A stretch of 63,997 bases of DNA, counting the filler, from Jimgerdemannia flammicorona (taxonomy: Eukaryota): assembly GCA_003990765.1 (NCBI GenBank). It is 3 parts of 3 records of this genome, joined end to end, with 100 filler letters (N's around TTAATTAATTAA, not from the genome) between each part and the next. Parts side by side here need not be neighbours in the genome. Positions count along the whole stretch, not along the records: positions 43,088 to 63,997 come from RBNJ01001569.1; 2 more parts are not named here. One strand, given 5' to 3'. The notes beneath the pieces were generated by a model. It saw only the letters and a program-made list of their open reading frames with translations, searched no databases and was not told where the DNA came from. The position numbers were made by a program, and so were the translations under genes. Position 1 is the first letter of the stretch, and each line of letters starts with the position of its first letter. This document shows positions 25,238 through 63,997 of this stretch, piece after piece.

Positions 25238-25249
25238 TGGAAGCAGTGG
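25238..25249 (+). other. Primer-binding site (tRNA-iMet-like)
   Basis: TGGAAGCAGTGG 3 nt after the LTR end. The sister element has TAGTAGTAGTGG, giving a consensus close to TGGTAGCAGTGG. Confidence 0.6.

Positions 25250-26981: not shown

Positions 26982-27014
<33 letters not shown>
26593..27014 (+). mobile_element. 5'-truncated LINE/SINE insertion inside gag
   Basis: Perfect 17-bp TSD AAACAATACCCCAGGAT (26576-26592 / 27015-27031), AATAAA at 26959, poly(A) from 26985. G-rich and CpGs intact. Confidence 0.92.
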
Positions 27015-27018
<4 letters not shown>

Positions 27019-27705
27019 AATACCCCAGGATACAGAGCCCATCCTGCAGCCCCTAGACTCAAATAACTCATGATTGCTCAATACTGCAGCAAAACCATGA
27101 TTGCTGAATCTCAAGTAAAACTCCGCAACCTCAAATTTGATGTACATAGCAAAGAAGAATTCGAAACCTTCTGTACAAAACTCGAGTCACTCCTGAATAC
27201 TATTGGCCTAGGATATATTGCCAATGATGAAACATGAAATGGTACAAGAGCAGACCATTTATTTAATGCACTGCCTGAATGGCTTACTAGAAAAATCTGA
27301 GAACAAGATTACCCAGTTGGTTGTGATCACTAACAATGGTGCCTCGCAAGAATCAAGACTATGGTTAAGTGAATCCTAACAGCTGGACCAATTCTGCCCT
27401 GAAGGCAATTCAACAATAAGGAAAAGACTTGGACCAAGAAAGAAGAACCCAAGCATGAAGCATCTCGAGCTCCCTCCACATCCACCTCTTGGATACCCAG
27501 AAATCATGAACCTACCCAACCGAGTACCTTCAAGAAACTCACTGAAGGTGAAAGGAATGAACTTCGAAGAAGCGGAGTATGCTTCTATTGCCAAAAGACA
27601 GGACATATGGCCAATGCCTGCCCTAACTGAAAACCCCGAACAGCAATACAAGCAACTGTTACCACTCTGCACCACCTCAACAACCTGACCACCAGAATAC
27701 TAGAC

Positions 27706-28110
27706 CTTGTCAAGTTAAGATAAACTGCTAAGGCCCCAACCAAAGGAAGTCAAAAAGCAGCTGGATATGACCTGTATGCAGCCGAAGAAGCTATAGTTTC
27801 CAACCGAGAAGTCAAACAAATCTATACAGGAATTAGTATCCAAATCCCTGAAGGACATGTTGGAAGAATATACTATTGCAGCAGTCTAGCATTGAAAGGA
27901 CTCACAGTAGAAGGAGGAGTCATTGATGAGGACTACACAGGTGAAGTTATTGTCCTCATCTGAAACCACAGTTGGACACCCTTCAAGATCTCTATTGGTT
28001 TCTGCATCGCTCAGATCCTATTCGAAAAAATTGAGTCAACTCTGATAGTCAAGAAAGTCTCTGAACTACTACCTACTATCTGAGGATCCAAAGGATTTGG
28101 CTCATCAAAC
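27706..28110 (+). pseudogene. dut: dUTPase domain of the retrotransposon polyprotein
   Basis: All five trimeric dUTPase motifs: AAGYDLYA, GRIYY(C)SSLA, GGVIDEDYTGE, (C)IAQI, (*)GSKGFGSS. Expected Arg codons appear as TGC/TGA. Confidence 0.93.
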
Positions 28111-31100
28111 AAGGCCCCAGTTCAACCTACTATGAACAAAGAAGAGCAATTCTATAAGAAAATCAAAGATAGATATGTACCAAGTAGCTGATATCTCCAT
28201 GGCATTGGAATGTACTCTTCCTGAATAATTGATGATTGCTTCTCTTGTGTCAATGAACTGGCTCAAAGAAGAACCAACAGAAGGAAAGCTCCTACAACCA
28301 AAATTACCACCATTGGATCAGACAAACTGCTTATACTTAAAGCTTTTATCAATTGAGCACCTGTCAAGATTATGATAGACAGTGGTGCCTCAGGCAACTT
28401 CATCAGTGAAGAGACAGCCAACAGACTTAAGGTCTTCACCTCTCTGGTACAACAAACTCAAGCAGTTGCCACAGCTGATGGAACCTCACATGTCATTAGC
28501 AAGGAAATCCACAATCTACCCTTCCAAATTGGTAACTATCGAGTACATGTTACCCTCCAAATTGTACCACTCCCTGACAATGAAATCATCCTTAGAACTC
28601 CATGGTTGAAACAAGAGAACCCCATGATTGATTGGGTAAACCATTCTCTGACCATCAAGAAAGGATGCCACAACTTCAAACTGCAAGGCGAAAAGAACCC
28701 ACTCAGTTCTAGTGACCCTGGACCAAAGATTACCTACATCAACAAGCTACAACTCAAGAAATTGGCCAAGAAATGCCCTCTCTTCACTATCTCCATCTGC
28801 CCATCTAAAGGAGAACTTGAGAACTCTGAAGAAGATTTCTTCAAAGTTGACAGCTGTGTCAGACCACTACTCTAGAAATTCTGAGACATATTCCCAAAGA
28901 AACTTCCAAAAGGCCTACCTCCTAAATGAGCAGTAGACCATGCTATTAAGACCATCCCAGATGCCAAACCAGTCTTCAAGTCAATCTACCACATGTCTCT
29001 GAGAGAAATTGATGCACTCAAGAAGGAAATCGATGAACTCCTAGAATAAGGATTCATTAGACCGAGTGTATCACCCTATTGTGCACCGGTCCTCTTTGTT
29101 GTCAAAAAAGGAGGAGATCTGCAAATGTGCATTGATTACCATGACCTCAATGAACAGACCATTAAGAACTGTTGCCCATTACCCAGAATCAATGAAATAT
29201 TCAATAGACTCACTAACCCACAATTCATGAGCTCTTTTGATCTGCGAAATGGCTATTGGCAAATTGCTATGAAAGAAGAAGATATCTACAAGACAGCTTT
29301 CCAAACTCGCTATGGACACTTCGAGTTCCTGGTTATACCCTTTGACTTAACTAATGCTCCTGCAACCTTCCAGACCCTGATGAATACTATTCTACACCCA
29401 TATCTAGACAAATTCATTATTATCTACATTGATAACATCCTAGTCTTCAGCAAAACCCTGGAGGAACATCTTGAACACCTTGAACTAGTACTACTGAAAC
29501 TCTGAGAAAACCGACTCTTTGCAAAACTCAGCAAGTGCGAATTTCTCCTGAAAGAAATTTAATTCCTTAGACACATTATCATGCCAAATAGAATTAAAGT
29601 GGACCCCAGCAAAATCTCTACAATCAAAGATTGGCCCAGACCCAAGAAGCTGAAAGACCTCCAGTCATTCCTGGGATTAGCAAACTATTACAGGCAATTT
29701 GTTGCCAACTTTGCTAAAATTGCTACTGCCCTCACCCAAATAACCAAGCACAGCAAGAAACAAGAACAACCCTGGACCACTAAACAAGAGAAAGACTTCA
29801 ACAATCTTGTAAATTGGAGACCTGAGTAAGATACCGCCTTTTAAGCACTGAAAGATGCCCTGATAACCACTCCAGTACTTCAAGTAGCAAATCCTGCTCT
29901 ACCATATAAAGTCACTACTGATGCCTCTGACCTAGCTCTTAGAGCAGTGCTTATGCAAGAAGGACACCCTGTGGCCTATCACTCCTGCAAGTTCAATGAT
30001 GCTGAAATTAACTATGCAATCCATGAGAAGGAAATGCTAGCCATTGTAGACACTCTGATCAAATGGTGACCATATCTAGAAGGAGCACACTTTACTGTAT
30101 TGACTGACCACAAATCATTAGTCAATATCAAGACCCAGGCTACCCTTTCTTGAAAGCAAGCCAGATGGATGAAAGTCCTCACCAACTTTGACTATGAAAT
30201 CCAGTATCACCCTAGTAAGGAGAATATTGTTACCAATGTAATTTCCAGACCACTCATTGAAGAAGTTATCCAAACTCTCACCTTGGTTACCAACACTATC
30301 ATGGAGCATATTATTGCAGTATGTGCTGATGACAAGGAAGCTCAAGCACTCTAAGAAATCCTGAGCAGTGATGATGCTGACAAACATATCCAGTACCATT
30401 AATACCAACTGAAGGATAATGCTATCTACTATAAGGACAGATTGTATGTTCCAAACAACCAAGACCTCCAAAGGAGTATCTTATTTGAATGTCATGATGC
30501 CCCAACAGCTGGACATTTAGGATTTGACAAATGCTATAAAGTTATCTCCCAAAACTTCTATTGGCCCTGTATGGCAGATTAGCTCAAAACCTACATCACT
30601 TCCTATGATGCCTGCCAATGGAATAAGTCCTCAACACTAGCAAAACCTGGCCTACTCAACCCTATTCCAGTACCATCTGCTAATTGGGAACAAATCTCTA
30701 TGGACTTTATTGTATAACTATCTCGAACCAAGAATGGGAAAGATGCAATTATTGTCTTCATGGACTATCTCAGCAAACAAGCCTACTTTGTACCAACCAC
30801 CACCACTGCAACAGTACCAGATATAGCCATACTCTTGTTTGACAATATCTTCTGCTATCATGGTCTTCCTAAGATCATTATTAGTGACTGAGATCTGAAA
30901 TTTACCAGCCATTTTTGAAAAGCCCTCCATACATACCTTGGAACAAAACTTGTACTATCTACAGCCTTTCACCCTGAAACTGATGATCAAACTGAAAGAA
31001 TGAACTGAACTTTGGAACAAATACTAAGGAACTATGTTTCCTATAGACAAGATAATTAGTATGAATACCTCACTGCAGTCAAGTTTGCCTATAACAACAG

Positions 31101-31599
31101 TAAGCAAGCCTCTCTGGAAATGACCCCATTCTTCACCAACACTGGACAAAACCCAAACACCCCTTTGACACTTATCCGAACCACTGAAGAACCCTCTACA
31201 GTTGAAGCTGTTGAAGAATTCTTACTCCGAATGTGCAATCTAAGCCAGATTACCATTGAGAATTTATCACGAGCTCAAGAACAACAGTTACAGTATGTTA
31301 ACCAACACTGCCAAGAAGAAACCTTTGATATTGGAGAAAAGGTTCTACTGGACATCAGAGGATACTGAGTTGACAACCTCAAGCACAGACCATCTACAAA
31401 GCTAAATAGCAAGTTCATTGGACCATTTGAAGTTATTGCACAAGTCTCTCTAACCTCCTAAAAATTGGTACTACTAGACACTATTAAGATTCACCCAGTC
31501 TTCAATGTCCAACATCTTAAGTGATATAGTGAGAATGATGATGAACTATTCTCTAACTGAATCATGAAACCACCTGCACCTGTTATTATTAATGATTAA

Positions 31600-31767
31600 G
31601 AAGAGTATGAAGTTGAACAAATCCTCAACAAACATGGCTACAAGAACCACCCTGAGTACCTTGTTAAATGGAAAGGTTATCCAATCCATAATACAACCTG
31701 GGAACCCAAGACCAATCTCCAGAATGCTACCAACTTATTTCAGAAATATGATTCCTTGAACAACTAA
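31600..31767 (+). pseudogene. Integrase C-terminal chromodomain
   Basis: EEYEVEQILNKHGYKNHPEYLVKWKGYPIHNTTWEPKTNLQNA. Confidence 0.9.
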
Positions 31768-32174
31768 AACCAAATACTCTGCACCTATCTATACATACTA
31801 TGTATTATCCTCCCAAATACTATAATTATAAAAAATCAAGAACTCAGCAAAACAAGACAAGAATACCAACCCTCTGGAAAAAATAGCAAAACTGAAAGCC
31901 AGCCTATTCTCCCTGTATCACTGGTGGGAAACAAAACATAGACATTTAAGAAGATTCTTTAGAGAAAATTCTCCAGCAGTGAATGATGTCAGAATCACTT
32001 CTGGCATATGGCATTGAACACACAACCCTTTAATGTGTGAATCCAATGTGTTAGGCAACTGTACTACAAGCATGCCACTTTCTGAAAAAATGGACTTTAC
32101 TAGACTTTTGACCTCTCAAATGGTGTAACAACACTAGAACAAAATTAGAAGGCCCGACAAGGACATCAAAAGCT

Positions 32175-32187
32175 AAGAAGGGGAGAG
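32175..32187 (+). other. Polypurine tract
   Basis: AAGAAGGGGAGAG just upstream of the 3' LTR TG. Confidence 0.9.
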
Positions 32188-32188
32188 T

Positions 32189-34211
32189 TGTAAGTGTACA
32201 ATCTCCAAGCCACCGAAATCACACATCACCCTCTGAACAAGCCACTGAAATCACACATGACCTCCAAACAAATCTAGAAATCACCTGCTTGATCATGAAG
32301 CTGAGTCAACATGAAGTCACAGAACACAAGATTCACACAAATGGAATCTTACCAATTAGGACCAAATGTATATATACTGAGCACTGAGACACATCGAAAC
32401 AGAGAACCAAAACAAACAACAACCATAACTTCCAAACATATAAACATGACCACTGAGATCTACAACTGTATCTGCACTGACATTTGAAATGCTATTGTCA
32501 ACTGAGCCACACCCCCTCTACTCCTCATAAATATCCATAGCCTAGCATCCCTCTACTTCATGGAAGCCCAATGGAATACTCTGAACATACTGAACGAGGC
32601 CCACCAGATCAGACAAATCTCAAGCTACTATCAGATTGGCCACCTCCTGGAAGACATGGTCGAATACCACAATAATACAGACATTACCCAGATGTCTCAA
32701 CACCAGAAACTCATTGCCTGCAAACACCAAGAACTCTTCTACAAATATAGCACTGTTATTCCCCACCTTCGAGTTACTATAGCCGAAATGGTTACTACCC
32801 TGTTCTATGGCCAAATTGATGACATGATACAAGAACTCAACTACAAGTACCTCGAGTATATCAAAACCACAGACAGAACCTTCCCCCACCCCAATGATCA
32901 TATCCTGCAAATGCCCCAAGTCAGATATGCTATGAAGGATGTCTATAATATAATCCACTTTGACAAAGATGAAGCAGAAGACAATGATCTCTCTGATACT
33001 GACATGACCTCAAGCCAAGGATCCCTGCCAACCCTCAACCTTGCTGATGAACTTACAGTAGTTCATAACTGCCTATGAGACCTATTGGGACAATGACTAC
33101 TGGTATAAATACTAACTCGCATTCACCTCCAATTACTTCAATTACAATGAAGAAACCAGAGAACATAATCTATATGTCCAGACAACCCTCGAGATCAAGC
33201 CAACCACTCCACCACCTGAGTACGAGCGACATAAACCACAGCTGCCAGCTTACTACAAACCCATGACTCATAGTACTGTAACCTATAGAAGATATGCAGA
33301 TAGTGAAACTGATGAAAGCGAAGATAATGTACTGCTTCTTTGCCCACCAATACCTTATCTAGTATATGAGACAGATGATGCCATCCTGTAGGATAGTGAT
33401 GAAGTCCTAATGTATTACTACCATAGTCAACAAGGAGAAGTAATCTGCAAACCACTCTTCCTGGATAACTACTTCATCAGAGATGATATCATCGATGGTG
33501 ATGTCATCAAAGACTACCCAGATAGTACCTAAACCATAAATAGCTTAGCAGTCATAGTATAGTTAGATTAGTCTTGTACAATATAACTGTGAACCAACTC
33601 AGCAATCAATTGATCTCTTGACATGTCAGATCACACTTGTACTATGTGACTGCATTCTGACTCAGTAAAGCACTTAGTGCTATATCCATATCTAGTATAG
33701 TCCAGATAGCCCCTCACTAGTATAAATACCCCCTCCCCCAGACCTCAGAATCTCAGACTTGAACAATCTGAATACAACTCCTGAGTATTTCCCAATAATA
33801 TTCCTTCACACAACCAACTCCTAGTATAGCAAAATTATGAATAGTGAATAAAATCTATTTAATAACCCACAAACCACTCTTAAGTAAATCTGCTCCCCAT
33901 TAGGTCCCACTCCTAACTCCATCACGAAATTTCCTAATTGGGTATTGTCTATAGTGATATGCCAATTCAACTAAGCTAGTCTTAGTTTCTTGAACTTTCT
34001 AAAATATGGAAAATCCTGAACATCCAGAACTAGTCTGAAAAAGGACTTTGGTTGAGACGTCAATCTGATCTTGAAATCAATAAGTATAGAGGACGTACTC
34101 CATATAAAATTAATCTTGACCATAAGAAAATGGTCTTCCAGAACATCCAGAACTTCCAGAAAATCCTTCCAGAACTACATAATGGTTACTCTAAAAAGCA
34201 ACCCTCTTATA
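32189..34211 (+). repeat. 3' LTR (2023 bp)
   Basis: TGTAAGTGTAC...CCTCTTATA followed by TSD TTGAG. Confidence 0.95.
32446..33078 (+). pseudogene. LTR(U3)-encoded accessory ORF, 3' LTR copy (~210 codons)
   Basis: Two early TGA stops correspond to TGG and CGA in the 5' LTR. The rest is the 172-aa ORF 32560-33078. Confidence 0.68.
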
Positions 34212-34869: not shown

Positions 34870-37800
34870 TGTAAGAGGGTTGCTTTTTAGGGTAACCATT
34901 ACATAGTTCTGAAAGGGTTTTCTAGAAGTTCTAGATATTCTAAAAGACTATTTTCTTATAGTCAAGATCAATTTTGTATAGAGTACATTCACTATGCTTA
35001 TTAATTTCAAGTTTGGGTTAATGTCTCAACCAAAGTCCTTTTTTGGACTAGTTCTGGATGTTCAGGATTTTCCATATTTCAGGAAGTTCAAGAAACTAAG
35101 ACCAGCTTAGTTGAATTGGTGTATCACTATAGACAATATCCAATTAGGAAATTTCATGATAGGGTTAGGAGTGGGACCTAATAGGGAGTGGATTTACTTA
35201 AGAGTGGTTTGTGGATTATTAAATAGGTTTATTCGCTATTCATGATATTGCTATACTAGGAGTAGTTGTGTAAAGAGATATTGTGGAGAAGTACTCAGGA
35301 GTTGTGTTTGGATTGTTCAAGTCTGGATTCTGAGGTCTGGAGGAGGGGGTATTTATACTAGTGAGGGGCTATCTGGACTATGCTAAATATGGATATAGCA
35401 CTAAGTGTCTTGCTGAGTCAGAATGCAGTCACGTAGTACAAGAGTGATCTGACATGTCAAGAGATTATCTGACTGCTGAGTTAATTCACAGTCACATCGT
35501 ACAAGGCTAATCTAACTATACTATGACTGCTAAGCTATTTATAGGTTTAGACACTGTCTGGGTAGTCTTCAATGACATCACTATTGATGACATCATTGCT
35601 GGCAAAGTCTGAGCAGTTTTCTGACTTCTGACATCATCAGTTTCAAGGTACCGTCACTTCTATCTCTTGTAAGATTAAGGCTGTTCTTGGTGGCAGTGGT
35701 TGTACAAGGATAATAGGTCTTGGTTCTCTTTTTTTTTGGTCTGCTGGCGCATTTGCAAGGACTGGCCATTCTTGTCTAGGGCAAGGGCTCTCAATGTCAC
35801 AGCTGGGGGTTCAAACCTCTTAGAAATAATATTTTCTGTAATCTGAGGCAATTTCTAGTAGCAATATCTATCATGTGGATGGCTTAAGATTGGTTTCGAC
35901 ATTGTTAGCTTTCTTGAGTTCAGATGAAGCATCTGTCACTCTCTAACAGAGGTGATACAGATAGAGTGAACAGAGTTGTTCAAATGCATTTTGCTTTTGC
36001 TAAGTAATGAGGTCTTGTATAGTCATAGTATATCTTGGTCTTGAGTTGATAAGTACAGTTTGTGAATCTTTTGAAAGATGAGATAGGGTTCTTCTTGTCT
36101 CAATTTGAGTTTGGTACTTTTGGTTTCCTTTTGTAATAGTACAGTATACCAAACTAGTTATAGTAGTTCAGAGTCAGTCTTATGGTTGTAGTACTTCTTC
36201 TAGTATTCTTATATCTTGGCAGTGGGTTCTCATACTTGCTGGCATATTTTGTGTAACCAGATGATCTCTTGTTTTGTAGTCTCACATGTGGTTTCCAAAT
36301 TAGTTCTGAGAATGCCATGCAATTTTGGTGGCTTAGAGGTTGTGCACTTACAACTCTCCCCTTCTTAGCTTTCAACATCCTCATCAGGGCCTTCTAATTT
36401 ATTCTGGTGTTGTTGTACCATTTGGATGGTTCTTGTGGCTATGTTTGTTGAGGATTTGTTCAACTTTGTATTCTTTTTGGTCATTAATAATGACAGATAC
36501 AGGTGGTTCTGTGGTTCAGTTCAGAAATGTGTCTCGGGCTTTCTGGAGTAGTGGTCTGACACAGCTGTCAACTTTGGAAAAGTCTTCTTCAGAGTTCTTG
36601 GGTTCTTCTTTGGATGGACAGATGGAGATAGCAAAGAGAGGGCATTTCTTAGTCAATTTCTTGAGTTGTAGTTTATTGATGTGAGTGATCTTTGATCTAG
36701 AGTTACTAGAACTGAGTGGGTCCTTTTTATCTTGCAGTTTGAAGTTGTGGTGTCCTTTCTTGATGGTCAGAGAATGGTTTATCCAATCGATCATAGGGTT
36801 CTCTTATTTCAGCCATGGGGTTCCAAGAATTATTTCATTGTCAGGAAGTGGTACAATTTGGAGGGTAACATATACTTGATAGTCACCAATTTGGAAGGGT
36901 AGATTGCAGACTTCCTTGCTGATGAAATGTGAGGTTCCATCAGCTGTGGCAACTGCTTGGGTTTGTTGTACCAGAGAGGTGAAGACCTTAAGTCTGTTGG
37001 CTATCTCTTCATTGATGAAGTTGCCTGAGGCACCACTGTCTATCATAATCTTGACAGGTGCTCAGTTGACAAAAGCTTTAAGTGTAAGCAGTTTGACTGA
37101 CCCAATGGTGGTGATTTTGGTTATAGGAGCTTTCCTTCTGTTGGTTCTTCTTTAAGCCAGTTCATTGATACAAGAGAAGCAATCATCAATCATTCAGGAA
37201 AAGTACATTCCAATGCCATGGGGGCATCAGTCACTTGGTATATATCCATCTTTGATTTTCTTATAGAATTGCTCTTCTTTATTCATAGTAGGTTGGACTG
37301 GGGCCTTGTTCGATGAGCCAAATTCTTTGGATCCTTGGGTGGTAGGTAGTAGTTCAGGGACTTCCTTGACTGTTAGAGTTGACTTGATTTTTTCAGATCT
37401 GGGTAATGCAGAAACCTATAGAGATCTTGAAGGGTGTCCAACTATGGTTTTGGATGAGGATAATAATTTCGCCTATATAATCCTCATCAATGACTCCTCC
37501 TTCTACTGAGAGTCCCTTCAATACTAGACTGTTGCAACAGCATATTCTTCCAATATATCCTTTGGGAATTTAGATACTGATTCCTGTATAGACTTGCTTG
37601 ACTTCTTGGTTGGAAACTATAGCTTCTTTGGCTACATACAGGTTATATCTAGCTGCTTTTTGACTTCCTTTGGTTGGGGTCTTAGCAGTTTGTCTTAACT
37701 TGACAAAGTCCAGTGTTCTGGTGGTCAGGTTATTGAGGTGGTGCAGAGTGGTAACAGTTGCTTGTATTGCTGTTTGGGGTTTTCAGTTAGGGCAGGCACT

Positions 37801-40800
37801 GGCCATATATCCTGTCTTTCAGTAATAGAAGCATGCTCTACTTCTTCGAAGTTCATTTCTTTCACCTTTGGTGAGATTCTTGAAGGTACTCAGCTGGGTG
37901 GGTTTATGATTTCTGGGTATCCATGAGGTGGATGTGGAGGGAGCTTGAGATGCCTCATGCTTGGGCTCTTCTTTCTTAGTCCAAGTCTTTTCCTTGTTGT
38001 TGAATTGTCTTCAGAGCAGAATTGGTCCAGCTGTTAGAATTCACTTGACTATAGTCTTGATTCTTACTAGGTACCATTGTTGGTGATCACAACTGACTGA
38101 GCAGCCTTGTTCATGGATTTTTCTTATAAGCCATTCAGGCAGTGTTCAAATAAATGGTCTGCTCTTATACTATTTCATACTTCATCATTGGTGATATATC
38201 CTAGACCAACAGTATTCAGGAGTGACTCAAGTTTTGTACAGAAGGTTTCAAATTCTTCTTTGCCATATACATCAAATTTGAGGTTGTGGAGTTTTACTCG
38301 AGATTCAGCAATTATGGTTTTGCTGCAGTATTGAGCAGTCATAAGTTGTTTGAGTCCAGGGGCTGCAGGATGGGCTCTATATCCTGTGGCATTGTTTGCT
38401 GCATTCTGTGCAACTACTGTAGGTCAGGTGTCCTATGTGAGGGGCTTTTCAGGAAGGGTTCACCACTATTCTTCAGCAGGACCTCAGAAGAATATAATAA
38501 CTCAGCAGACATAGGCTGTAGTGGTAGCAAAGAGTTGTTCCAGAGTGTGGTCTTGATTGTTTGTCAGAATGCAGTCAGCAACTCACTCATTGGTCTATTG
38601 ATTGGCTTCAAAGTTGGTGTCAACTACACTAATGAAGCTTTGGACTTCTTGTGCAGTATCATTGAAGGTAGGTAGGCTCAGATTTTTGGTAGATCAGATC
38701 TGTTCGGCTAGAGCAGTAATGGTTGCTGCCATTATTGCTACTTGGGCTATGAGGTCTAGAATCTGTTGGTTTGTCATATTGTTTACTGGAGGCAGTTGGA
38801 CTGCTGGTAGTGGTGTTACTGGTACTACTTGAGGTACTGGTGCAGAGTGCGATGGGGTTCTTTGAGTCTGTGTAAGTTGCTGGAGTAGTAGTTGTGAGTC
38901 TGGAGTAAGGGTTTGATAGATAGCTGTTTGTTGCTGTGTAGGTATATTCTGTCCTGATGGAGGTGCTTCTCCTTTGCTGGTATATCTGGGATTGAATTCA
39001 CTGAGATACTCCTTCTCTTCTTCAGTTTGGTCCCCATGTAATTGAGTTTGCTCAGTGTCAAAGTAAACAGAATCAGTTGTATATCTGATTTTGGATGGAC
39101 TTAATTCAAAGTCCAGTTCAGGTTCAGTGTTGGTTTCAGATTTAGATAGGGCTATAGCAGGGTCTGCTTCAGGTTCAGGATCAGGTAGTTGATGAAGGGT
39201 TTCTCTTGCTTCTTCTTTAAGAATATGATAGGCCTTGCTGTTCTGGAATTAGTAATATAATGCGGTCTTGGTCCTGGTGTAGTGAAAGTCAGTAGAGTTG
39301 AGCCACTTGGCTATAGAGGCTTGGACTTCATAAGGAACTAAGGCTAGAAAGACTGCTGCTAGTTGTGCTAGATTGCTCGGATTTGTAGAGCTGACAAAAC
39401 TCTTATTGAGAAGAGTAAAGAAGACTTCTATAAGATCTTCTTTATCTTAACTTGCTGGGTGTAGAGCAAGGAGTTTGGTGAATAGGGTTTCACCTATTTG
39501 CTGATTTAACTGGAGTATTTCTTTCTTCGAATAAAGTTTGTCCCACTTGTTGCAGGTGTGGAGGTCAAATTGTCCTTATACGTCAGGTTCAATTCTCTCC
39601 AGATTGTCAGATAGTTTAGGATAAATTCTAGTTCAGAGGTTGGGCTTTATTCCAACTTGTAGAAATTTGCAGAGGGGTTTATAGTAGGGTGAGGAAGTGT
39701 CTTGAAGTGGAATTAGATTGTGAACCACTACTACTAAGTTGTAAGAGGGTTGCTTTTTAGGGTAATCATTATGTAGTTCTGGAAGGGTTTTCTGGAAGTT
39801 CTGGATATTCTGGAAGACTGTTTTCTTATAGTCAAGATCAATTTCATATAGAGTACATCCTCTATGCTTATTGATTTCAAGTTTGGATTGATGTCTCAAC
39901 CAAAGTCCTTTTTTGGACTAGTTCTGGATATTCAGGATTTTCTGTATTTTAGGAAGTTCAAGAAACTAAGACCAGCTTAGTTGAATTGGCATATTGCTGC
40001 AGACAATACTCAATTAGGAAATTTTGTGATGGGGTTAGGAGTGGAACCTAATAGGGAGCAAATTTACTTAAGAGTAGTTTGTGGGTTATTAAATAGGTTT
40101 ATTTGCTATTCATGATATTACTATACTAGGAGTAGTTGTGTAAAGAGATATTGTGGGGAAGTGCTCAGGAGTTGTATTCGGATTGTTCAAGTCTGAGATT
40201 CTGAGATCTGGGGGAGAGAGTATTTATACTAGTGAGGGGCTATCTGGACTATACTAAATATAGATATAGCACTAAGTACCTTGCTGAGTCAGAATGCAGT
40301 CATGTAGTACAAGAGTGATCTGATATGTCAAGAGATCATCTGACTGCTGAGTCAGTTTACAGTCATGTCGTACAAGACTAATCTAACTATACTATGACTG
40401 CTAAGCTATTTATAGGTTTAGACACTGTCTGGGTAGTCTTCAATGACATCACTATGATGACATCATTGCTGGCAAAGTCTGAGCAGTTTTCTGACTTCTG
40501 ACATCATTAGTTTCAAGGTATTATCATTTCTATCTCTTACAAGATTAAGGCTGTTCTTGGTGGTAGTGGTTGCACAAGGATAACAGATCTTAGTTCTCTT
40601 TTTTTTTGATCTGCTGGTGCATTTGCAAGGACTGGCCATTCTCATCTAGGACAAGGGCTCCCAATGTCATGGCTGGGAGTTCGAATCTCTCAGAAATGAT
40701 ATTTTCTATAATCCGAGGCAATTTCTATTAGTAATATCTGTCACGTGGATGGCTTGAGATTGGTTTCGATGTTGTTGGCTTTTTTGAGTTCAGATGAAGC

Positions 40801-41222
40801 ATCCATCACTCTTCAATGGAAGTAATACAGATAGAGTAAACAGAGTTGTTCAAATGTATTTTGCTTTTGCTAAATAATGAGGTCTTATATAGTCACAGTG
40901 TATCTTGGTCTTGAGTTAATAAGTGTAGTTCATGAATCTTTGGATAGATGAGATAGGATTCTTTTTGTCTCAATTTGAGTTTGGTACTTTTGGTTTCCTT
41001 TTGTAATAGTATAGTATACTAAACTAGTTATAGTAGTTCTGAGTCAGTCTTATAGTTATAGTACTTCTTCTAGTATTCTTGTATCTTAGCAGTGGATTCT
41101 CATGCTTGCTGGCATATTTTGTGTAACCAGATGATCTCTTGTTTTGTAGTCTCACATATAGTTTCCAAATTAGTTCTGAGGATGCCATATGATTTTAGTG
41201 GCTTAGAGGTTGTGTACTTACA
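34870..41222 (-). mobile_element. Internally deleted (non-autonomous) sister chromovirus: extended Gag, dUTPase and PR retained, RT-RH-IN lost
   Basis: 1483-bp LTRs at 39740-41222 and 34870-36352, TSD CTCTC/CCCTC, PPT at ~36354-36366, PR ORF 36804-37046. Jumps from the start of RT to a chromodomain remnant near 36515. Confidence 0.93.
37308..37707 (-). pseudogene. dut: dUTPase domain, second copy
   Basis: Reverse-complement homologue of 27706-28110 (GGVIDEDY; TQGSKEFGSS). Confidence 0.85.
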
Positions 41223-41603
41223 CCCTCACTAGTATAAATACCTCCTTCTCCAGATCTCAGAATCTCAGACTTAAATAATCTGAACACAACTTCTGAGTAT
41301 ATTCCTTTATACAACTATTCCTAATATAGCAATATTATGAATAGCAAATAAATCTATTTAATAACCCACAAACTACTTTTAAGTAAATCTACTCCTATTA
41401 GATCTCACTCCTAACCATGTTATGAAATTTCCTAATTGGATATTGTCTGCAGTGATACACCAATCCAACTAAGCTGGTCTTAGTTTCTTGAACTTCCAAA
41501 AATATGGAAAATCTTGAACATCTAGAACTAGTCCAAAAAAGGACTTTGGTTGAGATGTCAACCAAATCTAGAAATCAATAAGCATAGAGGATATACTCTA
41601 TAC
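41223..41603 (+). repeat. Older host LTR, fragment 3
   Basis: Resumes at CCCTCACTAGTATAAATA and is colinear with the LTR to ~25128, then is interrupted by the SINE-like element. Confidence 0.85.
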
Positions 41604-42987
41604 AGCTCCTTTCTCTGCTACCTTACTGGTTACAAGGTTTGGTAGACAACCTTCCAAGTTCCCTTTCTCCTATTATACCCCCTCTACCTCAGGTTGGTTT
41701 GCTGTGCCTATATAAGTATGGTGGGAGGAGAATAATGATAATGAGTTGCCCCTTTATCAGTATCAGATCAGTGTCTTCTCCACTTTTTCATGGTTTCTGG
41801 TATCTTTGGCTACATCTGGAGTACATCTGTTTTGGTGCAGCACCTTCTTCCTTTTGTCATCGTCCATAAGGTGCTGTCTTGATATATCTCAGGCTACATA
41901 GGAAGTTGGCTGACCTTGGGCATCAAGTGCTCAGTATAGGTTACCTATAGGTCCTCGGTGTCTGTGGTGGGGCCCTCTGGCTTTGGCAAGCTTCTCGATG
42001 AGCACAGTTCTGGTGTAGGTGACTGTTTTTTGGGTATTGTTGAGATGAGAGGGGAGATGGCTGTCACAGATAGGAGGATGGGCAATTATGGTGAACCAGT
42101 GGGGTACCAGACTGGAGGCAGTCATCAAGACTGGGGCAGATAATATTTTGGTGGGGCCTTTTGATTGGCTGGTGGGGGGTGGGGTAGTGCAGGAGCCAGT
42201 ATCCTGGTTGTACTCAACTGGAACCAGAAGCTGACATAGTAATGTGATCAAGGCCCACAGGCTTGGGGAGTGGGGTCTTCCTCATTTGACAGTACCCAAC
42301 TGGAACCAGGAGCTGATATGGCAACATGATCAAGGCCCACAGGCTCAAGGAGTGGAAGTGGGATCTCTTCAGGCCCTAGCCTATATATAAGTCCTTTGAG
42401 GAAGGTGTTGTATATCCTTTTAACTGTTTTGCACCTATATTTAGAGGCAAGATTTTAAAAGTTTATAACTTTTAAAATCATAATAGCTTTTAAAAAAAAA
42501 TTTACCAATAATTTTTTATATAATAATTCTACCTTTGGTAAAAATTTTACAAAAAAAAAAAATTTTGTTTTTAAATAAATTGAGATATATTTTTAACAGA
42601 AAAACAATGTTTCAAAAAATCATTTTTTTCAAACTTTAATTTGTCTGCTAAGTAATTTTAAAAGATGATCTTATCTACAGACAAAGGGATAAGTCCTTTA
42701 CTTATCTGCTTTGAATCTACTTTGCTCTATATTGGTTGATTGGGGGGTTTTTTCTTTGCCTCGGGCTTTCTTTTGGGGTTTGGGGGGCTATTCTTTATTC
42801 AGTTCTAGTGCTGCTAGATCTGATGCATAGGTGTGCTCTCGCATGTAAATGATGATCTAGCTCTAGTGAGCAGACAAGTCTAGTCTATGTCATGGGGGTC
42901 AACATAGCCAGTGTTTGACAGGCATAGCTGGAGTGGTGGGACTGCTGAACAATTTAGTAACCTAGATTAATGGGGGAATATTATTCA
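41604..42987 (+). mobile_element. SINE-like non-LTR element, copy 2, with a ~275-bp AT-rich insertion at ~42415-42689
   Basis: Colinear with 1962-3070 and begins at the same 5' sequence AG(C)TCCTTTCTCTGCTACC. The insert is bounded by TCCTTT...AAAGGGA. Confidence 0.8.
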
Positions 42988-53498: not shown

Positions 53499-55722
53499 AT
53501 GCCTTTTGAACTTTTCTCGCATGGCAATATTTTCGGATACAATGCCGACTTGAATGACCTTGACGGTGAAGATGAGATAGACCAAACTGATGCGACTCCC
53601 GGTGCTGATGCTAATCCGACTCCCGATGATGGACTGCGTTTCAATTATTATCAAGACGTGTTAGTATGTCCCTACTTTATTACATGCAACCGAAACCGAC
53701 ATCATCTCACGCGTGTCTATCGGTTAGTTATCGGCAATTTCGTGGTATTCATGCAACATATATTGGAGAGAGAACCAATCGCCCACCTGGAGACTGTAAG
53801 TATAGTTCCTTTCACTCCAATACTTGTTAACAACAATTAATCGTCCCTTTTAACAAAAACACCCTCCTCCAGTGCACGTTGGTATCATCGGTGCTGGGAT
53901 GGCAGGTCTCTTCTCCGCCCTCATCTTAAAGACGGCCGGAATCCATGTAACCGTTTTCGAAGTAAACGATCGCGTAGGAGGGCGAGTCAACACACACTAC
54001 TTCCCCAGTGAGGAGACCCAAAAGTGGCAGTACGGTGAATTCGGTGCCATGAGGCTTCCTTTCGAAAACGCTGAACATGACCTTGTGTTCAAAGTCATTG
54101 ACTACTTGAACGAGTTGAACAAAAAGGATCACCCAGACAGACTTATCGATTTGGTTGAATTCAAAATGACATGTGATAAGTATGTGTTTGACGGCAGGGA
54201 GATGGGTAGTTTTGCACGACTCTAAAACGCAAGCTTACACCTTCGTTTTCCTTAGCGGACTCACGTTCTACAACAATAAGATGTTGACGAACAAAGAGGC
54301 TGACGATTCGCCTGATAGGATAGGTTTCCCCTCGGGTGTCCTCAATTTGTGGAATAGGGCCATCGCCATATTCATCAAAAGATTACAAGTCAACTTCAAT
54401 TTGGGTCTGTGGTTCCTTAAGAAGTTCGATTCGTACTCAGTTCGTGGATTTCTTGCTGCACCACCATTTTCTTTCTTAAAGAAAATAAGTCAAGAGTGGA
54501 TTTCCTACATTGAAACATACTATTCCGCCACGGGTTTGTTCCGTTTGGCTTTCGTCGAAGCCGTTATTGATGGTAAGTGAAAGACGATTGGCCAGTCCTT
54601 GCAATCCTTGCGCGATGCTCACATACGATATTTTTTCTTTTTTTCTAAAGCTTACACTTTCTCGGCAACCACATGGAGAACAAGTAATTATCGGTTATCT
54701 ACTGATCGGCACCAACATCCTGTGAAATGTTTCTGACCTCGCTTTTGCTTTTATTTTATTTTTTTTTTAAAAAAAAAAAAAAAATAGTTGTGGGAGGAAT
54801 GCAACGCTTACCTGACGCTTTCCGTCCCTTCCTTGGAAATAACATCAAATATCGGCACTCTGTGCAAAAGCTTGAGGTATTGCCAGGAGACAAAGTCGGA
54901 ATCACGTACACTACCATTCAGGACAATCAACGCCAATTTCCACCACTCAACGGTGAACAAACGAAAACCGAATCCTTTGACCATGTTATTGTAACCTGCC
55001 CTCTTGGTGTCGTCAGACGCTGGGACTTGCCTGGTAAGTGTTATACTGTTCACTGATTTTGCATTTCATAATTATCTTGTGATTTAATTTTCGTTGTGTG
55101 CACAGAATTCAGTCTTCAGAAAAGAACCGCCATCCGTTGCCTGAATTACGATAACTCCACCAAGATCTTCCTTCAATTCCAAACGCGCTTCTGGGAAAAC
55201 GGCACAAATCCCATTGAAGGCGGCAGTAGCAATACGGATTTGCCAATTCGTACAATTGTCTACCCCTCGTACGGGATAAATTCTGGTGAACCTGGTGTGT
55301 TGCTCGTTAGTTACACATGGGCGAATGATGCCGCAAGGTATGGTGCCAATTCCGATGAAGATATCGCTGAGCTAGCTTTGAGGGACGTCGTTAAGATTCA
55401 CGGTGATATCGCCAGAAGAGAATACATGGGTCGTTATGGTGTGCATTATTGGTCCACAGATCCAACTGCCGGAGGTGGTGCATTTGCGCTCTTCGAACCT
55501 GGACAATTCACTACCTGGATGCCACACATCAAGGAACCTGAATTCAATATCCATTTCGCTGGTGAGCATACCGATGTTCATCACGCCTGGATTGTTGGTG
55601 CTTTAAACTCTGCCCTATTCACGACATGTAACATTATGGTAAAAGAAGGCCTTGAAAAGTTATTCCGTAAAGTTACTGAACCATTCACCAACAAATATAA
55701 TGTACCCGATGAATATCTCTAA
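53499..55722 (+). CDS. Flavin amine oxidase family, L-amino-acid oxidase-like, 7 exons, ~582 aa
   Basis: Exons 53499-53659, 53728-53795, 53873-54179, 54256-54572, 54651-54683, 54788-55033, 55106-55722 (all GT-AG, 1749 nt, open frame). Motifs GIIGAGMAGL, RVGGRV, EFGAMRLP, GGMQRLP, HFAGEHTDVHHAWIVGAL. Confidence 0.93.
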
Positions 55723-59177: not shown

Positions 59178-60481
59178 TATTAAAACTTCAATCTCTTATT
59201 TTGAGCTTTTACTAAACTCATCTCTAACTCTCTACTCTTTTATAAATATACTATCTTCTCTCAATATAACTTTATTTTCTCTCTCTTAAACCATAACCAT
59301 CAAAATTTACCATATATAACTTCTCTTTACTCTTCTTCTATTCTTCTATAATATCTTACTCTAACTCTCTTTTCACTTTCAGACTCAAAGATTCCAATAT
59401 ATATATTCAAGTTATTATATACTACTATCATACTACTATTACTCTTTTATATTAGTACAATTATATATAAGAAAGTATTCAGCTTTTATATATTAGAGAA
59501 GTCTATAGTTTGATATATATATAGATATTAAGTATTTACTATTATTATTAAACAATATCTAAGTTTGCAGTTATATTAGTAGAAAGTATTTATTTCTAAG
59601 TTTATAATATCTATACTAGATACTATAAATTAAATATTAATATAACCAAGAATCTCTATATTATTTAGGACTATAGAGAGAGTTTAATAAGAGTGTTTGA
59701 TAGATTAAAATATATAATAGTTCTAATATCAAAGTTTACTAATAATATATATATATATAAAATTACAAATTTCTCATAATCACTATAAAAAATTAAGATC
59801 TATTATTAGTTATTCAATATAAATCAAAATGAGAAATATATATGAGTAAAACTACAAAAAATGAAAAAAAATAAAAACTAAATAACTATCTTTTTAAATT
59901 TCTTCTTAGGTTTAATAAATCCTCATTAATAATCTTAAGTATATCAAATTTGGTGAAGTTGTAATTATAGTATTTATATATATATTGAAGGTAAAGATAT
60001 AGTATAAATATATTCAGTCAGTTAAGATTAAAGTAGTTATAATTCTCATCTCACTAAGAGATAATATTGAGATCAATAATATATTTAATTTGTTTTTTTT
60101 TTTTTTTAAGAGTGAGTAGAGTAAAGAAGAGAGAGAAGTAGAATTGTAGAGATAAGATTGAGATAGATGAGTGGCCAAAACAAGTAGTTTATATTAATAA
60201 ATAATATCTATTAATTAGTAATTAACTTTCAGTTTAATAAACTATATAAGAATATAAGAATGGTTTTTAATTTTTGACTATTAGTAGCTAATTATTAGAT
60301 AGAAAAATATAGAAAAATACATAGTTATAGTATTTACAACTTTTTATATAAACTATATAGTCTATTAATATCTTAAGTATATTAATATCTTATCTATTTA
60401 AACTCAAATTCTAACTATAGTCTAATATATTCATAAAGTATATACTAAAGTTAATATAATATTATTAATTATATAGTGTCA

Positions 60482-62019
60482 TATAATGGTTGCTGAGTCC
60501 TTCAAATATGCCAGATTCTCTTCAAAGGGTATCTCTTAGACTAACTCAAGTTTGTTATAAGCAAGTTCTTATTAGAGTACCTTTCCAAGGTCTTATAGTC
60601 CTCAAACTTCTTATCTTTAAACTGTCTTATTATCTCTTAGATTGCTTGCAAAGAAGTGTATATATTGTACTGAGAGGAACTGACTTTATTTCAGAGGAAA
60701 TAAGAGGGGTATTTATATAAAATATAATTCAATAGTTGCTAAGATATAAAGCTAAATATATACTAAAATAAAATACTAAGATAGGAAAAACTACTAAGTT
60801 CCAGAGTTGGCACTGATGGTTGTACAGGTTCAGAATGCTGATATAATTTCAGTAGTACAGAAAAATGGTACTGGAATAATTCAGTGTTATATCAGAATAC
60901 TGGTGCTAGAATAATTCAGTGTCATTAAAGGACTTTAGAGCAGAATGTTCAAGACCATAGGAGCTTCATTCTCATTAGAGGTCAGGATGTCTTCAAAGGA
61001 GATGAGGTCTACAAATTCATCATCATTATGTAGGTCATGTGTTTTGTATATGTTGTATGTCTCACATATGCCATATGGGATGATGTTATTGCTGATGACA
61101 TCATCACATTTAATGGCAGTAGGAACAAAGAGGTCTGGGGCTCTCTAGTCTATGAGGTTCTCTTCCACAAAATAGGAGACAAATGTAGAGTCTTGAGGAG
61201 GTCTAACCTGAATGCTTGGGCCTTAGAATACTAAGATCAATCCTTGCAGAAATTGGTCTGGGTTGTCCTGGAGGATGGGATACCAGAAGTCTTCTACTTC
61301 ATCACTATTGAGAGTGATAGTAGACTGGGCTTCTGTAGCCACCCTGGCTTCTAGTATATTGATATGGTGAGCTGACAGATCTCTGAAGTCTGAGACTCTA
61401 ATATACTTTAAGTTGGGGATCAACCATGATGCATGCCTGAAGATCTGATGAATCTTCTTAGCTGTTCTTGTCTCACATATATCCATGGGAGTAGCATCTT
61501 GTAACTCTTGAGTGCTGGCCTGTGGGAACTCCCAGCAGAGGAGGTTTCCTATTTCATACTCCTGCCATATTTAGAGGCATTCAGTAGTAATAGTAATCCT
61601 TGTTTCTATTTCACAGCAGTAGAGGATATAATGATAAGGGTTATTCATATCTAGGTTAATACTAGAAGTCCTTCTTGAGCAGGTCCTCATGACTCTTCTG
61701 ATGTCTTAGAACATTCTTTCTTTGACTGAGATACCTTAGTAGTTCCTTGACCTTGAGGTTTGGCAAGCAGCAGGCATTTCATTTGTAGTAAGTCTTTGAG
61801 CTATTTTGGGATTGGTGGGTCTTGTTGGTTGCTGTTACTGCAGTTCCTTGATCCTTCTTTTATATTCCTCAAGATACCCATACTGTAGTCACAATGACTC
61901 ACAGTTGGTCATTATTGCTCATCTTGTATACTATATGATCTTCTTGTACTCCAATCTGGTGGCTTATAAGGAAAGGCTATCTCCTGTGCTGATATCATCA
62001 TTCTGGAGTCACCATTACA
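60482..62019 (-). repeat. LTR of a second LTR-retrotransposon family (1538 bp) preceded by a PPT
   Basis: Minus strand reads AGGAGAAAGA-TGTAATGG ... ACCATTATA. TATAAATACCCC near 60718 and TGATGTCA near 61100. Confidence 0.75.
61223..61777 (-). pseudogene. U3 accessory ORF of the second LTR family, apparently homologous to 23469/32446
   Basis: MPAACQTSRSRNY*GISVKERMF*DIRRVMR...LDMNNPYHYILY...IWQEYEIGNLL...MDICETRTAKKIHQIFRHASWLIPNLKYIRVSDFRDLSAHHINIL; three TAA stops. Confidence 0.6.
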
Positions 62020-62052
62020 TCTTTCTCCTGAATAAGGATCTTCTTGAACAAC

Positions 62053-62805
62053 ATGGGTAATACAGGCAGGCAAGATGGGTAAGACAGGCAAGACAGCAAG
62101 ATAATAAGATGGGTGATATAAGCAAGACAGGCAAGATAGGCAAGATGGGCAGATGGCAAGACAGGCAATATGGGCAAGACAGGCAAAATGGGAAAAATGG
62201 ACAAAATGGGCAATATGGGTAACATAGACAATATAGGTAATATAGACAATATGGGCAGGCAATATAGGTAATACAGGTAATACAGACAATATGGACAATA
62301 TGGGCAATATAGGCAGATAAGACAATATGGACAATATGGGCAATACAGGCAGATAAGACAGATAAGATGGGCAAGATGACAAGATGGTAAGATAGGCAAC
62401 ATAGATAAGACAGGTAGATGGCAAGACAGGCAACATGGGCAAGATAGACAAAATAGACAAAATAGAACATGGGCAATATGGGCAATATGGGCAACATGGG
62501 CAACACAGGCAATACAGGCAACATGGGCAGGCAAGATGGATAAGATGAGCAAGATGGGTAAGATGGATAAGATGGGTAAGACAGCAAGATGGCAATATAG
62601 GCAATATGGGCAATACAGGCAGGCAAGACAGACAAGATGGGCAAGATGAGTAAGATGGGCAAGATGGATAAGATGGATAAGATGGACAAGATGGGCAAGA
62701 TAGCAAGATGGTAATATAGGCAACATGGGCAATATAGGTAGGCAAGATGGGCAAGATAGGCAAGATGGGCAAGATGGGCAAGACAGACAAGATGGGCAAG
62801 ACAGG
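62053..62805 (+). repeat. Degenerate 9-bp tandem repeat (GGCAAGATG/GGCAATATG)
   Basis: ~750 bp array; accounts for the three overlapping low-complexity minus-strand ORFs. Confidence 0.92.
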
Positions 62806-63019
62806 AGGCACTAATAGGGGTTGGTCAGGTGTACTAGATGCCAAGTACTTGAGGTGGTTGGGGCTCACAACCCATACCCACTCTTGGGTGGGGTAGGCCA
62901 GATAGGAGGATCTAGTTATTTGGGCAGTGAGGTCACAACTCACACCCTAAAGGTACAAGGCTGAGTGAGTATGAAGGTAGGTTGAGATTGGGGTGAAATG
63001 GGGCTACTGATGTTATATG

Positions 63020-63720
63020 AGGACATGAACATATACAATAAGGCAAGAAGAACTATGTAGTGGTCCAAAATGGAAGAAGACCTGTGCCAATTTTTCAAAA
63101 GATGTGACAAGTGCCAAAAATAGAAACAAGATCAGCAAGACTAGGCATCTGGGTCATCAAGAATTGAGTCTATCCCCTTCCACCACATCACAATGAATAT
63201 CATTGGGCCACTACCAGTAATACTATTAGGAAACTACTATATTATAGTTATTGTAGACCTCTTTACCAAATGGATAGAAGCAGGAGTATTACAAGAAGCC
63301 AATGCCCTCTCTATAGCTGACTTTCTCCTAAATCACAACCAACTATAGTACAGAATTTGTCAATAGATTCCACAAGATAATATATCAGAAATACAAGATT
63401 CAGCACATCAAGACTACCATGTACCACTCTTAAGGAAATGGACAGATAGAGAGAACCAACAAGACCCTCAAGAACATTCTGGTGAAGATCTCAGAGACAT
63501 ATGAGAATTGGGATAACTACCTCCCAACTGCCCTCTCTGTCCTTCAAGACATATGGTCACAGAGCACACACTTTACCTTAAGAGAACTGCTCTTTGGAGA
63601 AGAAGATTCTGATGGAACCTCAGCCATAAATCTAGACCTAACTTGGAGATAGGTTGATGCAGAAATCTGGAGACTACACCAAATTAGGAAGAAGACTGAA
63701 GATTACATCATCAAGTCACA
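63020..63720 (+). mobile_element. Ty3/Gypsy integrase fragment (different family)
   Basis: CDKCQK, PFHHITMNIIGPLP, YIIVIVDLFTKWIEA, TEFVN, TTMYHS*GNGQIERTNKTLKNIL, WDNYLPTAL. Confidence 0.85.
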
Positions 63721-63997
63721 AGTGCTGACAAGAAAGAATGTATTGTGGCAGTATGGGTGGGGTTGGCTGGACATTGGCTCTTTGTTTTTGAGGAGGGGCA
63801 ATAGTTAGGGATAAGAGAGAAGTTGTTGAGATGGGAGGAGTTGGTGGCTGATCTGCTGATGAGGTAGTGGGTTGGATGGGGACCACAAGGTGGGTGGCAT
63901 CGCCATCTGGTAGAAGGGATCTGTAAACAGAGTGGTGGGTGGGTGGAGATGGTGTTTGATAAAGTGGTCTTTCATTGCGAAGGGGTTGGGGGGGGGA
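63721..63997 (+). mobile_element. G-rich non-LTR fragment related to the 26593-27014 insertion
   Basis: GGCTGGACATTGGCTCTTTGTTTTTGAGGAGG resembles GGCCGGCCACTGGCTATTTGTATTTGAGGAGG near 26700. Confidence 0.45.

Follow-up and report, generated by a model that had tools for sequence, protein, structure and literature searches.

The window analysed in this work is the whole stretch of 63,997 nucleotides from Jimgerdemannia flammicorona (assembly GCA_003990765.1), which contains long terminal repeats (LTRs) of two families. In both families a gene was found in U3, in sense orientation, lying in the 5' part of U3 and 120-240 nt inside the LTR. The second-family LTR (LTR2), located in the part of the window that comes from RBNJ01001569.1, is present as a single copy within the window. 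Its features, listed along the element strand, are the following:

62020-62029, minus strand (reverse complement): polypurine tract AGGAGAAAGA, directly 5' of LTR2, as read from the sequence
60482-62019, minus strand: LTR2, the second-family LTR, 1538 nt, in a 3'-LTR context
61857-61864, minus strand: upstream TATA box with the sequence TATAAAAG, some 80 nt before the ATG of the LTR2 gene; candidate promoter of the gene itself
60938-61777, minus strand: U3 gene of LTR2 in decayed form; its 280 codons include five in-frame stops (four TAA and one TAG); translation P0002
61096-61103, minus strand: octamer TGATGTCA, similar to cAMP response element/activating transcription factor (CRE/ATF) sites, within the acidic C-terminal coding part, where it encodes D-D-V-I
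60706-60717, minus strand: downstream core promoter TATAAATACCCC, presumed start of the genomic RNA; the same 12-mer occurs in the family-1 LTRs and in the metagenome locus L002
60685-60690, minus strand: AATAAA, which follows the downstream TATA of LTR2 by about 22 nt

On the minus strand LTR2 starts with TGTAATGG and ends with CCATTATA as read from the sequence, that is, with inverted-repeat termini of the TG...CA type in which the final dinucleotide is TA instead of CA, one transition from CCATTACA. Since no second copy of LTR2 was found within the window, its boundaries were checked against contigs of four soil-metagenome runs (X1-X4) with at least 80% likeness, aligned on 60200-62400 (2201 bases); 1551, 355, 198, and 162 contigs per run matched LTR2. 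Contig cover was restricted to approximately 60477-62047 of the 2201 bases: depth was zero to the left of 60422, and to the right of 62049 it dropped from 517 to 4 in run X1. The repeat unit was therefore bounded at the proposed LTR2 ends across independent copies. To the left of 60477, the loose contig ends in X1, X2, and X4 gave one consensus starting with TGG on the element strand, and this shared stretch beyond the 3' end of LTR2 looks like a primer-binding site; the polypurine tract is thus seen in the window and the TGG stretch in other copies. To the right of 62047, contigs of X1 and X3 ran into a common sequence unlike that of the window, so that about 28 nt of internal sequence beyond the polypurine tract are common to other LTR2 copies before they diverge from the window. 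Neither a flanking internal gag-pol region nor a target-site duplication was found for LTR2 in the window, which ends at 63997, a situation compatible with a truncated or rearranged element, and no pol domains were detected on the minus strand at 62020-63997. Based on its termini, its polypurine tract and the unit bounded by metagenome copies, 60482-62019 is a true LTR; what the window contains is the remnant of a 3' LTR together with its polypurine tract. This agrees with the original prediction, which had described it as a separate LTR with its own polypurine tract and with no nucleotide similarity to the first-family LTR; the best blastn E-values between both were 0.049-0.18, and only the 12-mer TATAAATACCCC was identical.

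The U3 gene of LTR2 occupies positions 243-1082 of the 1538 nt of the LTR, upstream of the TATA at position 1303. The segment 61223-61777 had been taken for an open reading frame (ORF), but it contains three in-frame TAA codons and its longest open piece has 87 aa (61223-61486). The frame continues beyond the end originally assigned to it, up to 60938, and the other two frames across the gene are riddled with stops. P0002 was searched with its stops read as X. The first database search accepted four of 297 candidates: P0003 (271 aa), with 67% identity and covering 100% of P0002, and further matches P0004, P0005, and P0006; identity to the intact proteins P0003 and P0004 was 67-72% over 93-100% of the length of P0002. 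An exhaustive search with a hidden Markov model (HMM) built from five family-2 sequences returned five proteins (E<=0.001), and a profile search with a nine-sequence alignment returned 12 proteins among 8000 scored candidates. Scanning of metagenomes for the family-2 gene confirmed two loci (L001 and L002) out of 161 pattern matches and did not recover the 4848-nt contig of P0011. The intact ORFs of L001 (291 aa) and L002 (323 aa) are each by far the longest ORF of their contig, and all intact family-2 relatives (271-342 aa) are anonymous metagenome proteins on short contigs. When viral contigs were scanned with A2 and A5, none of the 25 and 80 pattern matches, respectively, was confirmed. All five stops of the LTR2 gene fall at positions where intact relatives have Q or W and are thus C-to-T or G-to-A transitions; in agreement with this origin, the differences between LTR2 and the metagenome contigs, read on the plus strand, are mostly A in the window for G in the contigs, or T for C. 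The U3 frame of LTR2 thus derives from a real gene of approximately 270-340 codons in sense orientation, of which it is a copy inactivated by mutation.

Several lines of evidence bear on selection. Values of pN/pS (nonsynonymous and synonymous differences per site) were 0.309/0.693, 0.446/0.732, and 0.401/0.754 for the three pairs of sequences for which DNA was available, ratios that can be read only qualitatively since synonymous sites are saturated. The nucleotide alignment between LTR2 and L002 was confined to LTR2 positions 224-878 (70.6% identity), which correspond to the N-terminal two-thirds of the gene, and the remaining LTR did not align to L002 except for short motifs. Likewise, metagenome relatives with at least 80% likeness covered the N-terminal domain densely but were sparse at 60792-61087, a segment that comprises the variable acidic tail and a spacer. 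Taken together, pN below pS, the alignment restricted to coding sequence, the pattern of cover and the many intact ORFs of 271-342 codons indicate that the LTR2 U3 gene descends from a selected gene whose protein is under purifying selection, as had been proposed.

The first family, with which LTR2 was compared, is represented in the window by the following features:

23212-25234, plus strand: 5' LTR, 2023 nt, with a TGG primer-binding-site-like sequence directly after the LTR end
23334-24089, plus strand: family-1 U3 gene in the 5' LTR, 252 codons with one TAA stop
32189-34211, plus strand: 3' LTR, 2023 nt, with a polypurine tract upstream
32311-33075, plus strand: family-1 U3 gene in the 3' LTR, 255 codons with two TGA stops, translation P0007
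34870-36352, minus strand: gene-less LTR variant, 1483 nt, with its partner at 39740-41222, belonging to an internally deleted family-1 element

The 5' and 3' LTRs are 88.5% identical, and the U3 frame begins 122 nt inside the LTR and is duplicated in both. The internal frame (25237-32188) encodes, in this order, zf-CCHC, dUTPase, RVP_2, RVT_1, RT_RNaseH, Integrase_H2C2, SH3_Tf2-1, and Chromo domains; the order protease, reverse transcriptase, RNase H, integrase together with the C-terminal chromodomain identifies family 1 as a chromovirus-type Ty3/gypsy element. Among 18 candidates, the family-1 U3 gene had one database relative, P0001 (128 aa, 77% identity).

The relationship between both U3 genes had originally been proposed from an alignment by eye. 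As a pairwise alignment it did not stand: local Smith-Waterman scores of the window copies were not above those of shuffled sequences (z -0.31 and 1.59; -0.07 and 1.17 with the extended frame), and semi-global alignments gave z 2.0 and 2.7 (91 and 18 of 2000 shuffles as high) in a register different from the proposed one. That register and all six motif pairs were, however, returned by profile methods. Comparison of the family-2 and family-1 profiles with hhalign gave E 0.27 over 55 columns with five family-2 sequences, 0.0021 over 105 columns with nine, 3.8e-4 over 137 columns with 14, and 2.3e-4 over 136 columns with 16, the register being identical at every depth. Using the 14-sequence family-2 alignment (A4), none of 203 column shuffles of the family-1 alignment reached the real score of 34.2 (mean 14.1, standard deviation 2.5, maximum 29.0). 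The family-2 HMM matched the intact P0001 with 19.9 bits (E 1.8e-8 as a single target; 119 of 128 residues covered), and the highest of 3000 shuffles of P0001 scored 10.5 bits. Both decayed window copies of the family-1 gene were also recognized, P0007 with 7.6 bits (E 1e-4 as a single target; three of 3000 shuffles as high) and P0008 with 5.7 bits (E 3.9e-4; 12 of 3000). When the six-frame translation of the window (approximately 128,000 residues) was searched with this HMM, the only matches with E<1 besides LTR2 itself were the two family-1 ORFs, which were matched in frame and in colinear order. The residues paired in the HMM alignment were DIxxAI, an N-[IL] block, YEIG/YQIG, AKKxHQxF/ACKHQELF, IPNL/IPHL, and LSxxxxD. 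In the reverse direction, the family-1 HMM was run on seven of the 16 family-2 sequences, those of at least 240 aa, and L002 (13.1 bits; 0/1000 shuffles as high), P0011 (7.8 bits; 0/1000), and L001 (5.8 bits; 1/1000) were distinguished. Both groups of U3 ORFs thus show significant similarity at the profile level, and we regard it as very likely, from these sequence comparisons, that the two U3 genes are homologous.

The two LTR families also share promoter elements. The downstream core promoter sequence TATAAATACCCC occurs five times in the window against 0.56 expected, a number not reached in any of 100 shuffles, and all occurrences lie in these LTRs or in fragments of them; in both families TTAGCA is conserved approximately 25 nt upstream of it. 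The octamer TGATGTCA occurs 13 times against 3.8 expected (again reached in none of 100 shuffles), ten of these in the LTRs described here. Family-1 LTRs have one to three copies located 220-240 nt upstream of the TATA, and L002 has three reverse-complement copies at the matching place, inside the acidic tail. It had been stated that both motifs follow the ORF; both are present, but TGATGTCA lies inside the frame of LTR2 and not after it. Its occurrence inside coding sequence in either orientation suggests a putative DNA-level site that overlaps the tail of the gene. Upstream of the gene, the TATA box TATAAAAG is invariant in LTR2, L001, and L002, 57-90 nt before the ATG, in surrounding non-coding DNA that does not align, and a block around and just before the start ATGCCTGC is conserved in the same three sequences. 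With its upstream TATA, its block before the ATG and a TATAAATACCCC promoter block approximately 180 nt past the ORF stop, L002 is LTR-like; of the two loci found beyond the window, the association of HMM matches with LTRs is therefore clear for L002, and L001 has no clear LTR features. A 33-nt direct repeat flanks the intact ORF of L001 (170-202 and 1481-1513; 82% identical, 1311 nt apart). It was considered as an LTR edge and rejected because the similarity does not extend further.

Regarding the encoded protein, net charge is +1 to +8 over the basic first 45 residues, -8 to -12 in the acidic core, and -13 to -27 in the strongly acidic tail, a charge polarity that is alike in families 1 and 2. 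The N-terminus MP..R..QT(S/A)R is conserved in all family-2 subgroups, and the tail ends in P-x-x-L-N-F/L in most family-2 members and in L-P-T-L-N-L in family 1. A low-confidence AlphaFold2 model of family 2 made from 16 sequences (predicted local distance difference test, pLDDT, 51; 53-77 for residues 50-160) is helical between residues 18 and 185 and includes a short beta region as well as a disordered tail. The family-1 model (P0001; pLDDT 50), likewise of low confidence, consists of helices throughout, which fall at equivalent positions of the alignment. The predicted product would have a basic N-terminus and an all-helical core of approximately 170 residues, and would end in a disordered tail that is strongly acidic. 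Pfam contained no family for either U3 ORF of the window, and nothing at E<=0.1 for 16 members except two weak ATG5_HBR matches. A PDB sequence search gave no matches at E<=1, a Foldseek search with the family-2 model gave nothing at E<=0.001 in PDB or BFVD, and ESM Atlas queries with P0003 and P0001 gave no match above the chance levels of the tool. The absence of Pfam, PDB-sequence, fold and literature matches is consistent with an undescribed U3 protein family, as anticipated in the original prediction. As a lead only, the ESM Atlas queries with P0003 and P0001 listed some common neighbour clusters.

The occurrence of the same gene at the same place in both families points to an accessory gene of this retrotransposon lineage that is old, under selection and copied along with each LTR. 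We consider a selected accessory gene in U3 of both LTR families to be the probable explanation overall, its structural and homology part being very probably correct. Since U3 precedes the start of the genomic RNA in the 5' LTR and is found at the 3' terminus of that RNA, the gene is not translatable in the way of gag-pol. The family-2 gene may instead form its own transcription unit, with TATAAAAG before its ATG and the AATAAA of the LTR downstream, and a separate mRNA could then be made from any LTR, solo LTRs included. In family 1 a TATA-less start, an internal promoter or a spliced mRNA would be needed. The product might be a nuclear trans-acting regulator, which would either activate the downstream LTR promoter or serve as an RNA-export or expression factor of the CERV or Rev type. 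The layout of a basic, a helical and an acidic part suggests a nuclear regulator, and by analogy with such factors we put this specific functional reading forward as a doubtful one. It is also possible, though tentative, that a soil-fungal Ty3/gypsy lineage carries a self-contained U3 gene with TATA, ORF and polyadenylation signal, each LTR being a potential expression unit for a trans-acting regulator.

Several observations weigh against a selected accessory gene in U3 of both families. In family 1 the U3 ORF is not preceded by a TATA, so the model of an own promoter does not generalise, and L001 lacks a recognisable LTR boundary and a downstream TATA. The gene copies in the window are pseudogenes, and the internal region of LTR2 is absent from the window. 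Regarding homology, pairwise alignments of the window's own copies were not significant, the probability given by hhalign itself was 44% with the 16-sequence profile, and the family-1 profile consists of three sequences, two of them the LTRs of one element; the family-1 HMM failed for four of the seven family-2 sequences (P0003, 85/1000 shuffles as high; P0002, 106/1000; P0004, 178/1000; P0013, 40/1000). With dS saturated, dN/dS is a rough guide, both AlphaFold models are poor (pLDDT 51 and 50), and the Pfam, PDB, fold and ESM Atlas searches tie the protein to no known function. Finally, a gene-less LTR variant has transposed. This 1483-nt variant aligns to the 2023-nt LTR only at positions 1-98 and 745-1481, so that the promoter half is common to both; the replaced part is full of stops in all frames and gave no match to the family-1 HMM. 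Its transposition implies that the U3 gene is dispensable in cis.

Three other explanations were weighed. In the first, the frame would not be an independent gene and would represent a 3' exon or extension of the main transcript, for instance a spliced Gag or Pol fusion, whose expression would be confined to the 3' LTR of full-length RNA. The restriction of U3 to the 3' end of genomic RNA, beyond pol, and the missing upstream TATA of family 1 would fit such an exon, and CERV, the regulator of Cer1, is described as the product of a spliced mRNA in the excerpted text of PMC10309623. However, the frame upstream of the LTR2 ATG is full of stops, and the conserved MP..R..QT(S/A)R N-terminus, the ATGCCTGC start and the TATA 60-90 nt upstream of it fit a self-contained ORF, which makes the exon unlikely. 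In the second, each LTR family would independently have transduced a piece of a cellular gene and carried it passively, the metagenome relatives being the host gene. LTR retrotransposons do capture extra ORFs, according to the portions of PMC5408684 and PMC7264820 available, the relatives are anonymous and sit on short contigs with their context mostly unseen, and L001 has no recognisable LTR features. We nevertheless consider capture very unlikely, given that L002 is LTR-like (upstream TATA, block before the ATG, and TATAAATACCCC approximately 180 nt after the stop), that metagenome cover at 80% likeness or more stops at the LTR ends and not at the ORF ends, that no relative has a Pfam domain or the name of a cellular gene, and that place and orientation of the gene are alike in both families. 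In the third, a highly improbable one, the LTR2 gene would be real and decayed but unrelated to the family-1 ORF, the motifs arising by chance from composition and free choice of register; the pairwise local scores inside the shuffle distributions (z -0.31, 1.59, -0.07, and 1.17), the one shuffled profile of 203 at an hhalign score of 29 and the four of seven family-2 proteins left indistinct by the family-1 HMM go in its favour, but the signal gained strength and length with the addition of independent relatives, P0001 scored 19.9 bits against a shuffle maximum of 10.5 (n=3000), exactly these two ORFs were the top non-self matches in approximately 128,000 translated residues, and LTR position, orientation, charge pattern and downstream promoter are alike in both families.

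Further observations concern the first family and the decay of the LTRs. A second stop-poor frame was found in the family-1 LTRs at 24169-24555 and 33146-33532 (plus strand; 129 codons with one stop each). It follows the U3 gene, is read in a different frame from it and has R-D-D-V-I-x-D-D-V-I as its last residues, for which the TGATGTCA repeats code. It was considered as a displaced C-terminus of the family-1 gene and rejected, its likeness to family-2 tails not being significant (at best 10/500 and 16/500 shuffles as high). Family-1 LTR fragments also occur at 22962-23211 and 41223-41604. The element at 23212 sits in an older LTR copy, and the sequence flanking it codes for the last 36 residues of the U3 gene at the C-terminus; the plus-strand fragment at 41223-41604 adjoins the reverse-oriented element. 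The dUTPase domain of family 1 (E 6e-31, approximately residues 831-957 of the frame) has the zinc knuckle of Gag on one side and the protease on the other; the consulted portion of PMC2864245 reports dUTPase-bearing fungal Ty3/gypsy elements in Postia, Phanerochaete, and Tuber. Differences between paired LTRs were 210 transitions versus six transversions (23212-25234 and 32189-34211) and 131 versus five (34870-36352 and 39740-41222). The transitions showed a preference for CpA (88 of 155 and 58 of 94 contexts), and the observed/expected ratio of CpG was 0.22 in the family-1 LTR and 0.0 in LTR2. Judging from these patterns, the decay looks like a C-to-T change driven by methylation or resembling repeat-induced point mutation (RIP), which would explain the TAA, TAG, and TGA stops, and its dominance by transitions hints at a fungus with a RIP-like or methylation defence.

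In the surroundings of LTR2, a minisatellite with a 9-nt period (62049-62805) lies directly upstream of the polypurine tract region. It has many length variants among the metagenome contigs and gives rise to spurious long minus-strand ORFs. An integrase fragment of another retroelement in opposite orientation (H2C2 zinc-binding and core regions; 63034-63652, plus strand) adjoins it. The window also contains an AT-rich block (23-24% GC) at 56-60 kb and two pieces of host genes, one for a protein kinase domain (15546-16406, minus strand; best as Tyr/Ser-Thr type, E 2.6e-28) and one for the C-terminal part of a flavin amine oxidase (55072-55722, plus strand; E 1.5e-27). Only small shares (0.04-0.16) of the words of the window were found in soil metagenomes and in one coded organism (A).

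A conserved and selected U3 protein in elements without env would mean that the placement of accessory genes in the LTR predates or parallels retroviral evolution. LTR and solo-LTR copies would be protein-coding loci that are masked by standard transposable element annotation; if each LTR is indeed an expression unit, solo LTRs would form a dispersed multigene family, beyond regulatory debris, and the gene would be a retrotransposon counterpart of the retroviral U3 accessory genes, encoding a transactivator or an RNA-export or anti-silencing factor. It would also be a tractable candidate for control of the element's own promoter or for evasion of fungal genome defence, and its abundance in soil metagenomes (162-1551 contigs per run on LTR2) makes a comparative study feasible.

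Accessory genes located in, or extending over, U3 of the 3' LTR are found in retroviruses, such as sag of mouse mammary tumour virus (MMTV), nef of human and simian immunodeficiency viruses (HIV/SIV), and the bel/bet region of foamy viruses. To our knowledge, genes wholly inside an LTR are otherwise known from retroviruses only, and extra genes in LTR retrotransposons are, as far as we know, rare and mostly unexplained. A sense-strand U3 ORF of this kind was present in both families studied here: like sag, nef, and bel, it is an addition to gag-pol that sits in U3 ahead of the LTR promoter; duplication of the LTR duplicates it as well, and its expression is necessarily separate from gag-pol translation. 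Pfam contains models for Sag and Nef, and none of the 16 members matched either at E<=0.1, nor any PDB sequence. Unlike the retroviruses, the present case concerns LTR retrotransposons without env, family 1 being a chromodomain Ty3/gypsy element, and, unlike the retroviral U3 genes, the gene of family 2 seemingly has a TATA of its own in the LTR.

Among retrotransposons, additional ORFs (aORFs) offer a comparison, such as those of plant LTR elements reviewed in PMC7264820, ORF0 of rice Retrosat2 and the "add. ORF" of fungal chromoviruses: they are lineage-specific extra ORFs of Ty3/gypsy elements that evolve faster than pol and are retained, as the U3 gene appears to be. The text of PMC7264820 contains none of the phrases "in the LTR", "within the LTR", "inside the LTR", or "overlap". 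ORF0 of rice Retrosat2 lies, according to the part of PMC3485330 at hand, between the 5' LTR and gag, that is, outside the LTR, unlike the U3 gene described here. An "add. ORF" of fungal chromoviruses appears in a figure legend of PMC2864245 and may overlap with the present gene family; apart from it, a search of full-text literature, in the portions retrieved, found no LTR-internal gene of a retrotransposon. The crapaud element of Podospora (PMC10787394, in excerpt) resembles family 1 in that its LTR variants share the promoter half and differ wholly in the 5' half; unlike family 1, it is drawn with two ORFs (gag and pol), and the excerpt mentions no ORF inside the LTR. Finally, CERV of the Ty3/gypsy element Cer1 of C. 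elegans is described in the excerpted text of PMC10309623 as an element-encoded, nuclear, non-enzymatic regulator required for the genomic RNA to be expressed or exported. CERV comes from a spliced mRNA, unlike the own transcription unit proposed for the U3 gene, and no sequence relationship is claimed; the likeness, drawn by analogy, would lie in the kind of role proposed for the U3 gene product.

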